Below, piece after piece: positions 15,577 through 53,900 of a stretch of 64,000 bases of DNA. A program made the position numbers and the translations under genes. The stretch is from contig CP154954.1 of NCBI GenBank assembly GCA_039621445.1, forward strand, positions 43,026,632 to 43,090,631, given 5' to 3'. The stretch is from Euglena gracilis. Its lineage: Eukaryota. The notes under the pieces are model-generated. The model was not told the origin of the DNA. It saw only the letters and a program-made list of their open reading frames with translations, and searched no databases. Each line of letters begins with the position of its first letter. Within the stretch, counting starts at the first letter, position 1.

Positions 15577-15708
15577 CAGGCTGTGTTTTAGTCGGGTGCC
15601 GACCCCACCCCGGGAGGGGGGGTGCCTGCCTGGGCAGGCACCACTGGGCAGGCACTCACAGGCACTCCGGACCCCCCCCCCCGGCCGGGGTGGGTAAAAA
15701 ACAGCCTG
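15577..15708. mobile_element. hAT-like MITE, 132 bp
   Basis: TIR CAGGCTGTGTTTTA / TAAAAAACAGCCTG; perfect 8-bp TSD ACACCAAC; related to 18604-18903. Confidence 0.88.
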
Positions 15709-16649
15709 ACACCAACCATTTGTGCCACTGAGCACACGTGCCGCTTAGAAGGTGCGGCACCACAGCAGTTTGGAAATACTAAATGCGAGATATTTTGCAC
15801 AATTTCAGTACAACTAAAGGACCAGCCCGCGGGCTTGAATTTGGGCCATTGGCAATTGAGCATGTGAAAAACCATTTCTTAGCTCCTGAAACAGCAAAAT
15901 GAACGGCACTTGCAGTTTTTGTCCTGAAAAACTGATTTCAAAGGTGCCCTCCACCCCTATTTGTTTAGTTCGAAAATGAGGCACAGTACGCTGGCAAAAA
16001 GGAAAATGGGCGTGTCAGCTGGCTTGAGGATCCCTGTGTTCAGGTTGCCAATGCAATACACTGACACGCTTCATTTGACCCTCTCAGACATATTTTACAA
16101 CACCACCACTTTGAGCACAACACTGCACACGCTGCTCTTCTCCCTTCCCGTTCTTCTCTTGTCTCAGAAGGCAGCAAAAAGAAAAACCTCCCAACCTCTG
16201 TCTCTTCTGGCACACCGGGGGGGGGGGGGTCTGCGGTCCTGGAGCACCCATGGGAAGGTCGACGATCGTGGGAAGTGTGCGGGCAGTTGCCACCGATGCC
16301 CTCCTGTTTGAGCCCAATGGGCCCCCATCCAGTCTGAGGGGAGGGGGGCCTTCTTCCAACCTGAACCCCCTCCCCCCCCATCAACGAGTTTGATTTCTTT
16401 TCGGGAAATGCCCTCAGCGGCCCAGCAGTTAGATTGTGGGGGGTCCCTGGGGGGGGCACACGGCGCCTCCTCTGTGGTCTTGAGAAGAAGCGTGGGGGGT
16501 GAGCAGCGGTTGCGGAATGTCCTCCTCCCCCGTCCCGGCGCCCCCCCTGAGTCGGCCCCGCTCGCCATCCAACACGGGCCTCCTCCGACGGGGGGAGGAG
16601 GCCGGCGGCGCGAGTGACAGACAGAAGGAGGACAGCGGCACTGCGCGGG

Positions 16650-50980: not shown

Positions 50981-53900
50981 ATGGCTCCGCGCAAGGAAGA
51001 ATTCTTTCAGCACCAAAGGGCCGAAAGAACATTTTGGCATCAAAGTCGAAGCTCCCAAAAAAAACACGGAAGGCCTGGGGGATGGTCCTACTTTCCACCC
51101 ACCACCCATGTTATGCCACCCCCTGCCAGATGTCATCCTTAACCTTCCCCTAATCATGTGAGGGTGTGTGTGTGTGTGTGTGTGTGTGTGTGTGTGTGTG
51201 TGTGTGTGTGTGTGTGTGTGTGTGTGTGTGTGTGTGTGTGTGTGTGTGTTGTGTGTGTGTGTGTGTTGTGTGTGTGTGTGTGTTGTGTGTTCGTTCACGT
51301 TGTGTGTTGTGTGCGTGTGTGTTGTGTGTTGTGTTGTGTGTGTGTGTGTGTGTGTGTGTGTGTGTTGTGTGTGTGTGTGTGTTGTGTGTGTGTTTGTGTG
51401 TGTGTGTGTTGTGTGTGTGTGTGTGTGTGTGTGTGTGTGTGTGTGCGTGTGTTGTGTGTGTTGTGTGTGTTGTGTGTTGTGTGTGTTGTGTGTGTTGTGT
51501 GTGTGTGTGTGTGTTGTGTGTGTTGTGTGTGTGTGTGTGTGTGTGTGTGTGTGTGTGTTGTGTTTGTGTGTGTGTTGTGTGTGTTGTGTGTGTGTTTGTG
51601 TGTGTGTGTGTGTGTGTGTGTGTGTGTGTGTGTGTGTTGTGTGTGTGTGTGTGTGTTGTGTGTGTTGTGTGTGTGTGTGTGTTGTGTGTGTTGTGTGTGT
51701 GTTGTGTGTGTGTGTGGTGTGTGTGTGTGTGTTGGTGTGTGGTGGTGTTGGGTGTGTGTGTGTGTGTGTGTGTGTGTGTGTGTGTGTGTGTGTGTGTGTG
51801 TGTGTGTGTGTGTGTGTGCTGTGTGTGTGTGTGTGTGTGTGCATGCGTGCGTGCGCATTATGTAACATGCACCCTGTGCCTGGCTCCGCAGTGGAGGCAG
51901 ACGAGCCCGTGCCCCCGTGGCGATCCCCGCCACCGGGGCAGGGCCAGGGGGGTTGCCCCCTGCACCAGGGATAGATGGGAAGCACTTCAGTTTTGAGGGA
52001 GGTGGTAGGGGGTGGTCCCGACCCCCCACTGGGGGGCAAGGTAGGGGGCAGTCCGGACCAGGTGTTGGGAGGGGTGCCCAGACCCTCATCCCCCCCTCTT
52101 CAGCAGGTTCCAGAAATAGCAAAGAATTTTTTAGTGCACAGCGTCGGAAAATGAACAAAAAATGCATTTTTACTCACTTTTTGCGCATGTTGCCCATTTT
52201 TTGATACGCTGGTGTTTTCCACATAAACTATATATTATATTAAAACAAAAGATTCAAATAATTTCGAAAATAAGCTTTTTCGGACGTATTTTCAAAGGGA
52301 TTTTTGAATGGTTTTGGCCCGATTGTCAGCCCTTCGCCCATTCACAAAACCAAGGACTCTCTGGGCCCATGCCAATTTCGAGGTTGGAGGTTCTCCTCAA
52401 TGCTTCTCATCTATCCCTGCCCTGCACTGTTGCTGTTGCTGCTGTCGCTGCACGTCCGCCACACGTTTGCACTGGTTGGGTCGGCGCATGCCCGTCCCCG
52501 CCCCGGGCCCCTCTGAGCCCCTGTCTTCCCACACGCTGGTGTTGGGCTGGGCCTCCTGTCAGCTGGGGGGAGGTCGGGATTGCCGAGGGCAGGGAAACAC
52601 AAATGCCTTTCTGAGTGTTTTTTTGCGGGTTTTTTTGTGTTTTTTGGTGCTTTTTTAAGGCGATTTTTTTTTATTTTTCCTGGAAATTTTTTAAATATAA
52701 AAATTTGCTGATTTGGCCCCAATTTTTCCCCGGAACCAAATTCTTGTCAATTCTTTGACATTTTCCCTTTTTTTTGCAGTCAACAAGTTGCATTTTTGGG
52801 ACAAAAAATGAAGAATTTTTCCTGAACAAGCAAAAAAAAAATGAATGCTCTAAGTCTAAGAAAAAGTGTACGGGAGCTCCTGAAGGATTTTACATGCAAT
52901 TGAGGTTTTTTTATGCTATTTTTGCCTTCGTTTGCATCTTTTTTGCGTGTGTGCCCCCCCCCCCCGCCGAGAGGTCCCCGGGCTGCGGCTACGCTCTGCC
53001 GAAAAGCCGTTGCCTCGCACGCCGCACCCTCGCCCCCCTCCTCCCTCCCCCTCCCCATGCTCCGCTGTGTGGCTCATATGGCGTCGAGAGGACCCCCTTC
53101 GGGCCCTCATATATGGCCTCCCGGGCGTTGACCTCGTGTGTGGCCATCGGTGTGGTGCTGCGACCCTCGGGCGGCAGTGATCTGGGCAGGGTGCCTCTCC
53201 CAGCCTTGAAGGCCGTTCTTTTTTTTTTGTGGATTGCCCACAGTTGTCCACCCACCATACACCTTACGCCTCTGAACCAACAACGGAATGGGCGAAACAG
53301 GTCACACGAACAAGGTTGGAGACCAGGGCGGTGCTTAAGAAAATTTGACCCCCCCCCTGGGGGGTCCAGCCAGCCAGCCAGCCAGCAGCCTTTTTCCGGC
53401 CAACGGCCTTTTTTTGAGCCCCGGACCCCCCCCCTCCCCCCAATCAACGGGATTTATTTATTTCCAGCTGCCCTTTGGGCGGCTGAACGGTGACAGATTT
53501 TTCGCTTTCGCGGGTTCAAAAATGGGCCAAAATGGGCAAAAAATGGACGAACATGGGTCAGAAAAAAGCTGTCCAGGACATTTTGGGGATCAAGGAACCA
53601 ATTTTTTGTATAATTGGCAGATGTTTGCAACTAAAAGTTATAAATGTGCAATTAGATGTGCAATTATAAATTGCACATTTTTTGCAATTTTGATTTTTTA
53701 TACCCGGTTTGACCCCGGGTCCGGCCCAGCTCCAGCCTGGGACCCCTATGGGGGGGGGGTCAGCCAGCCTTTTTCCAGCCAGCCTCTGAGCTGGACCCCC
53801 CCCGCAGGGGATCCTTGAGCAACGCTCTGTTGAAGACACCAGCCGTCCCCAATGCAATCACAGCACAGTTCAATGCAGAAGAGCAAGGGAAGCCTTTCAC

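Follow-up and report, generated by a model that had tools for sequence, protein, structure and literature searches.

Knock-in experiments in Euglena gracilis have defined the splicing code of its nonconventional introns as 5'-N3-CDG ... CH'G-N5-6 followed by a purine, with a 5' spacer of strictly 3 nt and a 3' spacer for which 5 nt is optimal and 6 nt is still accepted, whereas splicing is poor with 7 nt and hardly occurs with 8 (PMC12501133). The CAG and CTG triplets and the pairing adjacent to them are essential, a purine is needed at the start of the next exon, and synthetic 50-bp introns composed of CAG/CTG, 12 complementary bases, the spacers and the purine were spliced like natural ones (PMC12501133). 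Such a synthetic intron is in effect a 15-nt inverted repeat starting with CAG. Here we describe, in a 64,000-nt stretch of the E. gracilis genome (assembly GCA_039621445.1, contig CP154954.1, positions 43,026,632 to 43,090,631 of the forward strand; hereafter the window), a set of transposable elements that begin with CAG, end with CTG and are flanked by 8-bp target duplications, together with a cysteine protease gene carrying an intron of the nonconventional type, and we consider these elements as a candidate source of that intron class.

An origin of nonconventional introns from elements like MITEs (miniature inverted-repeat transposable elements) was proposed in 2014 (Milanowski et al.), at a time when no transposable elements were known in euglenids, and the preliminary description of this window was thus right to call it a suggestion already made in general terms. 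The paper that established the code calls the origin unclear and repeats the general suggestion, with neither hAT elements nor target duplications in its available sections (PMC12501133). A 2024 review treats CAG/CTG as parts of inverted repeats and calls the repeats at the junctions duplication-like, giving neither length nor superfamily in the parts available, and reports that excised nonconventional introns are released as full-length circles (PMC11282704). The only documented recent gain is intron 4 of gapC in E. agilis ACOI 323, which is absent from other strains and whose junctions carry eight-nucleotide direct repeats, the longest among the introns of that study; both intron junctions there show the same preference, a pyrimidine before the cut and a purine after it, and the downstream exon has A at position 2 in 43/55 and C at position 3 in 30/55 cases (PMC4770533).

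Elements with CAG ends and 8-bp duplications

The preliminary description had listed seven elements (M1 to M7, Table 1), and all seven were found at the positions it gave, with inverted ends of 13-19 nt. Their end triplets are CAG...CTG apart from CAC at 40454 and ATG at 18903, the two exceptions it had named, and five of the seven 8-bp duplications are perfect as it had said, the remaining two matching at 7/8 (M7) and 6/8 (M3). With the two newly found elements M8 and M9, terminal inverted repeats are present in nine of nine, with 11-19 matching terminal bases, and every duplication is 8 bp long (seven perfect, one 7/8 and one 6/8). End sequences among the elements include CAGGGATAGATGG, CAGGGCGGTG and CAGGCACCTATGG. 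Together the nine sum to 5189 bp, or 8% of the window, which is repeat-rich, has a G+C content of 58% and carries numerous (CA)n tracts.

The elements and their duplications are real and lie far above chance. When the window was shuffled 20 times under a first-order Markov model and scanned for 13-nt inverted pairs with at most 2 mismatches and an exact, non-low-complexity 8-bp flank repeat, 0 qualifying pairs appeared in the 20 shuffles against 6 in the real sequence, namely M2, M5, M6, M8, one GC-rich pair of unclear status at 13923-16458 and one microsatellite artefact. M1 and M4 are missing from these six because the filter treated their duplications as low-complexity. An internal control gave a concordant picture of its own: among 122 CA[G/C]...[C/A]TG pairs in the window (13-nt ends, at most 2 mismatches), flank identity scored out of 8 was bimodal, with 13, 16, 30, 32, 7, 14, 3, 0 and 7 pairs at 0, 1, 2, 3, 4, 5, 6, 7 and 8 matches, respectively, and the seven pairs at 8/8 were five of the previously listed elements plus M8 and M9. 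No further intact ends of the known families were present in the window with 2-4 mismatches allowed. A metagenome search with the 18-mer end of M5/M6 returned 25 contigs with one match each and no paired end; on a rough estimate these matches were put down to chance, given an 18-mer and the size of the collection, and were discarded.

Judged by their sequence, these elements, at least nine in number, are MITEs and short deletion derivatives, non-autonomous DNA transposons of the cut-and-paste kind. They belong to six or more families, are 94-1858 bp long and have ends that begin CAGG. The earlier count of about five families for the first seven elements agrees with what was found, in that M1 and M2 are related, M6 derives from the M5 family by internal deletion and the other three are separate. 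Three families are multi-copy within the window: M1/M2, M5/M6 with a truncated third copy, and M7 with a decayed copy; for M9 and the candidate at 36271-36646, likeness is limited to the end sequence. The 8-mers differ among copies of one family (GCTCCAGG for M5 and CCCTGCAC for M6, and likewise between M1 and M2) and each is duplicated at its own site, which therefore points to a staggered DNA cut at a new target. Directly inside both ends of M4, in the same orientation, lie perfect 10-bp tandem repeats (unit GGCCGACCAG, 4.5-4.9 copies, 27842-27965 and 28811-28859), possibly transposase-binding repeats. The two open reading frames (ORFs) scanned inside M5 had no Pfam match.

Several further features of the elements were observed. 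Long runs of C and of G, 10-15 nt in length and in many cases arranged as C(n)G(n) palindromes, occur in M1, M2, M3, M5, M7, M8 and protease intron J1, and may be a shared internal signature of the group. For M7, the 5' end may instead pair with a partner that ends at 54473 (11/13 at the ends, 5/8 in the flanks), with which the element would be 1150 bp long or nested, and M9 holds at 25398-25410 the sequence AAGGCACCTATGA, identical at 11/13 positions to the 13-nt end of M4. The GC-rich inverted pair at 13923-16458 (TGCCCC..., exact 8-bp flank repeat CACGGCGC) does not start with CAG; it encloses M1 and the region just 5' of the protease gene and may be due to chance or be another element.

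Table 1. Positions in the window of the elements, the candidate and degraded copies, and the protease gene with its two placed introns (ends, terminal inverted repeats; duplication, flanking 8-bp direct repeat; rc, reverse complement)
Feature	Position	Strand	Description
M1	15577..15708		132-bp MITE; ends CAGGCTGT.../...ACAGCCTG, 14 nt, 1 mismatch; duplication ACACCAAC 8/8
M2	18604..18903		300-bp MITE of the M1 family; ends 14 nt, 1 mismatch, with ATG as the mutated 3' end; duplication TTCTGGTC 8/8; within intron J4
M3	19788..20471		684-bp MITE; 16-nt perfect ends CAGGGCAGAACGGGAA; duplication 6/8; within intron J4
M4	27831..28892		1062 bp; 13-nt perfect ends; duplication GCCCCGGG 8/8
M5	40454..42311		1858 bp; ends CA(C/G)GGATAGATGGGAAGC, 18 nt, 1 mismatch; 5' end CAC; duplication GCTCCAGG 8/8
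M6	51966..52419		454 bp; ends 19 nt, 1 mismatch; duplication CCCTGCAC 8/8
M7	53324..53829		506-bp MITE; 5' end CAGGGCGGTGCTTAAG; ends 13/16 (3 mismatches); duplication 7/8
M8 (newly found)	12603..12696		94-bp MITE; ends CAGGGGGTGGCCA 11/13; duplication CCGGTGGC 8/8
M9 (newly found)	25326..25424		99-bp AT-rich MITE; ends CAGGGATTATTTT 11/13; duplication ACCAGGTC 8/8
Candidate older copy, end-likeness to M9	36271..36646		ends CAGGAATTTTTTC; duplication 6/8
Candidate GC-rich element	59104..59728		ends CAGGGCCGCCCCC 13/13; duplication 6/8
Decayed M7-family copy	17990..18437	+	~76% identity over M7 positions 70-500; ends lost; within intron J4
Truncated third M5-family copy	56828..57863	-	81-95% identity in pieces; no recognisable ends
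Papain-family cysteine protease gene	16677..24491	+	~9 exons; catalytic CGSCW exon ~17796-17891; last exon ~24283-24491
Intron J1	16854..17185	+	322-bp unit 16857-17178; bounds CAGGGCGGGGAGC / rc CAGGGCGGTGGGC 11/13; flanks 5/8
Intron J7 (nonconventional)	23429..24036	+	GGC-CAGGGCGGT...CTGCCCTG-CCGCC then G; 9 terminal pairs; flanks 2/8

Element geometry and the intron code

The central proposal of the preliminary description, that 3 + 5 = 8 is the geometry of these introns as well as of the elements, stands in its geometric part: the spacers have been set experimentally, and the anatomy of an element together with one 8-bp duplication is the published intron anatomy (PMC12501133). Read on the + strand as inserted, seven of the nine elements keep CAG...CTG, and six of nine carry the full code with N5 and a purine at duplication position 6; M6 fits only with N6, and M2 and M5 each carry one mutated triplet. 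In the predicted RNA fold of M1 the C of CAG and the G of CTG are the exact limits of the terminal helix, and the 8-nt flank on either side is unpaired. Duplication positions 7-8 correspond to exon positions 2-3, where the hobo target GTNCGNAC and the P target GTCCGGAC also have AC (PMC3276498), and the same pyrimidine|purine preference at both junctions is what one would expect because a duplicated target site predicts such symmetry.

An insertion could become an intron in the following way. An element that landed in an exon would be transcribed with it, and its inverted ends would form a terminal helix to be read by the nonconventional splicing machinery, which would cut 3 nt upstream of the helix CAG and 5 nt downstream of CTG. 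The element plus exactly 8 nt, that is one copy of the duplication, would be removed, and the reading frame would therefore be restored base for base; the asymmetric 3/5 rule would follow from the 8-bp staggered cut made by the transposase.

The papain-family cysteine protease gene, the one clear cellular gene in the window (its ends are approximate), provided introns for comparison. Its exon map was drawn with 150 relatives from an exhaustive protein search; two word-index searches for close homologues of the last exon gave none, and a search of solved structures with one ORF gave only an irrelevant weak match. Introns J1 and J7 were placed with the help of two homologues that align over the junction with no gaps. 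Removal of J7 takes out 608 nt, a 600-nt unit plus exactly 8 (3+5), and there is no in-frame GT/GC-AG alternative for it; J7 thus follows the published nonconventional code. J1 has the N3 spacer and a 3' spacer of 7 nt, its removal taking out 332 nt, or 10 more than the unit (3 nt ahead of CAG and 7 following CTG), and it contains C- and G-runs resembling those of the MITEs. The 3' spacer of J1 lies in a C6 run (17180-17185) that with four Cs would give an exact 3+5 fit and a next exon starting with AAC; the two additional bases may stem from a homopolymer error in the assembly or be a true departure from the code. The preliminary reading of the introns here as NNN-CAG...CTG-NNNNN accordingly holds for J7, with its 9 pairs, but not for J1. 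Introns J2, J3, J4 and J6 have in-frame GT/GC-AG options and J5 and J8 are ambiguous, and all six were left out of the nonconventional count. J4 (~3 kb) houses M2, M3 and the decayed M7 copy, and elements therefore accumulate within introns of the protease gene.

All four ends of J1 and J7 read CAGGGCRG, which is also the first 8 nt of M3 and M7. This 8-mer occurs at 21 of 2524 CAG/CTG sites in the window (0.8%), compared with 11.1 expected, and 1 of 100 shuffles reached 21. The longer 9-mer CAGGGCGGT occurs 4 times against 1.1 expected, at two intron ends, at the M7 end and at 54465-54473. In the intron interiors, comparison of J1 and J7 with every MITE gave no internal similarity except one 18-nt match between J1 and M3.

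The protease gene has further features of interest. Its last exon is found twice in the window (197-387 and 24281-24471, 191 nt, 99.5% identity) with unrelated sequence on both flanks, save that ~10 nt at the intron 3' end resemble each other between the two copies; such a pattern suggests paralogues in tandem, in which conservation or conversion is limited to the exon and the introns have turned over completely. Downstream of each copy lies a 208-bp repeat (2728-2933 and 25755-25960, identity 95.7%). The best relatives of the last exon, P0001 and P0002 (873 and 771 residues), contain 8 and 3 separate matching stretches per protein, respectively, which suggests tandemly repeated protease segments.

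Elsewhere in the window, an apparently intact non-long-terminal-repeat (non-LTR) retrotransposon with a G+C content of ~70% occupies 3190-11396 (+). Its ORF2 (5850-11396) is uninterrupted over 1848 residues with endonuclease, reverse transcriptase, RNase H and zf-RVT domains (Pfam), and an open frame of 783 residues preceding ORF2 has no Pfam match. The Pfam sample comprised 240 ORFs, 27 of them hand-picked and 213 drawn from the 585 frames of at least 70 amino acids outside the retrotransposon. It gave only the retrotransposon, the protease and weak FG-GAP (E = 4.5e-5) and UCH_1 (E = 7e-4) matches in one open frame each, which a motif search did not place. A scan of the window against Rfam gave zero matches.

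Origin of the introns and class of the elements

The best explanation of these sequence features, and one that we think will probably prove correct, is that 8-bp-duplicating, CAG-ended elements are the most likely source of euglenid nonconventional introns. Support for the creation of introns by insertion of such elements is good but only indirect: end triplets, helix start and spacer sum coincide, an 8-nt repeat has been published for a new intron, the two junctions are symmetrical in their base preference, and introns and elements share end 8-mers. The preliminary description had named hAT elements as the source, and this fared unevenly: the geometry, the 8-nt repeats of gapC and the shared end 8-mers agree with it, but no element was caught in a coding frame, J1 comes out as unit plus 10 and the hAT label itself is in doubt. 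The broader proposition that nonconventional splicing evolved to erase 8-bp-duplicating elements from transcripts, with 3+5 existing because of the duplication and the majority of nonconventional introns, a class that makes up 71.8% of all introns in E. agilis, being decayed copies, is one that we would neither favour nor disfavour, and that the cutting enzyme itself is related to the transposition machinery strikes us as an outside chance.

It is unlikely that the resemblance is a coincidence, in which ordinary MITEs would share the genome with introns that arise otherwise (by break repair or from conventional introns), CAG ends would simply be common and 3+5=8 would be accidental. Several independent accidents would be needed at once: in the end triplets, in the start of the helix at the element boundary and in a spacer sum equal to the duplication length. 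To these would be added an accidental 8-nt repeat in the one new intron on record, a pyrimidine|purine preference shared by the two junctions (PMC4770533), and the presence at 4/4 ends of J1 and J7 of the end 8-mer of two local families. What lends coincidence its weight is a series of observations that tell against an origin of the introns from these elements. None of the seven originally listed elements could be placed in an exon or interrupts a recognisable coding frame, and removal of the element with one duplication restores no plausible frame; M2 and M3 are nested in intron J4 and are not introns themselves. Neither J1 nor J7, whose proposed boundaries are drawn from protein homology, retains a convincing duplication, the five matching flank positions of J1 lying in a C-rich context, so that the preliminary remark on protease introns with no residual duplication was accurate, and the 3+7 spacing of J1 is off the rule by 2. 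The match of the end 8-mer was spotted post hoc, the overall enrichment of CAGGGCRG is modest, the sample is small, and the interiors of J1 and J7 differ from the MITEs as described above. At the position where an exon would begin, a purine is preferred weakly (13/18 over both orientations, p = 0.03). From the literature it must be added that 38.8% of E. agilis nonconventional introns fall outside the code (PMC12501133) and that the 8-nt repeat of gapC intron 4 was read by its authors as the trace of double-strand-break repair (PMC4770533).

The reverse direction, in which the elements would be mobilised introns whose excised RNA circles were copied and reinserted, seems to us highly improbable. 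Full-length intron circles are known (PMC11282704), and in such a circle the spacers of 5 nt and 3 nt would meet as a junction of 8 nt; carried-over spacers would, however, leave 3 nt on one side of the insertion and 5 different nt on the other, and copies of the same family (M5/M6, M1/M2) instead have different, locally duplicated 8-mers. The derivation of M6 by internal deletion from the longer M5, and the subterminal tandem repeats of M4, which are of the kind that transposases bind, likewise speak for DNA transposons.

As to the superfamily, the case for and against hAT appears about balanced; the label rests on the 8-bp duplication and the CAG ends. The ends of hAT elements follow the consensus YARNG, and short ends starting with CAG together with an 8-bp duplication are the classical hAT combination. 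In the window, YAR is present in nine of nine elements (in M2 and in M5 one of the two ends is mutated) and G at position 5 in six, so that six of nine fit through position 5; M1, M2 and M4 start with CAGGC and depart from the consensus. On the same side of the ledger, no transposase domain, of hAT or otherwise, was present in the 240 scanned ORFs of the window, and the nine duplications, a small sample, do not show the hAT target consensus NTNNNNAN, having T at position 2 in 2/9 and A at position 7 in 3/9. The duplications and CAG ends cited in the preliminary description thus support its hAT label, but the target consensus and the search for a transposase do not. That the link with introns is real and the elements belong instead to P, Merlin, a Mutator-like or a rarer 8-bp group is an alternative with a considerable chance, if somewhat less than that of hAT. 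The 8-bp duplication is not exclusive to hAT, being made also by P elements (PMC3276498) and by two Merlin families described in E. gracilis (PMC8101967), and no paper tying hAT to Euglena was found. Against Merlin in particular, its ends have a conserved terminal 5'-GG (PMC8101967), which is absent here, M1 to M9 all starting with CA.

Significance and relation to known systems

The origin and the asymmetric boundaries of nonconventional introns have been an open question since the 1990s, and the 2025 code paper still calls the origin unclear (PMC12501133). If the elements are the source, one explanation would cover the spacers of 3 and 5 nt, the pyrimidine|purine preference being identical at the two junctions, and why "slidable" introns are so abundant; intron gain would become datable and countable per family; and there would be a second, non-GT-AG route by which genomes tolerate transposon insertions in genes. 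If, in addition, splicing evolved for erasure, no larger case of introns made by transposons would be known, and no other served by a structure-reading code in which GT-AG is not needed. A MITE origin in general terms is already in the literature, but neither the specific mechanism nor the candidate source elements seem to have been described before. In a literature search that covered few subscription journals and no supplements, no paper was found to name hAT, an 8-bp duplication or 3+5=8 in connection with these introns, and none to report free-standing elements with such ends from a euglenid.

The closest described system is the euglenid nonconventional introns themselves (Milanowski et al. 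2014, 2016; Nomura et al. 2025), with which the elements share CAG at +4..+6 pairing with CTG at -8..-6, the inverted-repeat helix, the 3-nt and 5-nt unpaired spacers, the purine and a very variable length. The available published accounts give no element family, superfamily or duplication length for those introns, whereas the elements described here stand free outside exons and have intact 8-bp duplications. The E. gracilis Merlin families are the sole autonomous, 8-bp-duplicating DNA transposons that we found reported for a euglenid, and they differ from the present elements in their terminal GG in place of the CA starts (PMC8101967). With hAT MITEs, the relatives of hobo, Ac and Hermes, the elements have in common 8-bp duplications (found for hobo at 99.8% of 1,198 sites, PMC3276498, and for Hermes), short CAG ends, subterminal repeats as in M4 and deletion derivatives. 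The differences from hAT MITEs are those already given: no transposase in the scanned ORFs of the window, NTNNNNAN unseen in the nine duplications, and CAGGC at the ends of M1, M2 and M4.

Removal of an exonic hAT-family element from the transcript as an intron is reportedly also known from maize Ds, where, as Giroux et al. are said to have described in 1994, cryptic spliceosomal sites are used and the removal is usually imprecise. The published Euglena code, in contrast, would restore the mRNA exactly. Introner elements of Micromonas, Polarella, Amoebophrya and other organisms are likewise small DNA transposons with inverted ends and target duplications that have given rise to introns genome-wide, with splice positions that account for the duplication (PMC11282704). 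Those introns are spliceosomal, their GT/GC-AG-type sites coming either from the element or from the duplication, which is 3-5 nt long (PMC11282704), whereas the elements of the E. gracilis window would be removed by a structure-based code that does not require GT-AG and in which the 8 nt of the duplication are split 3+5.

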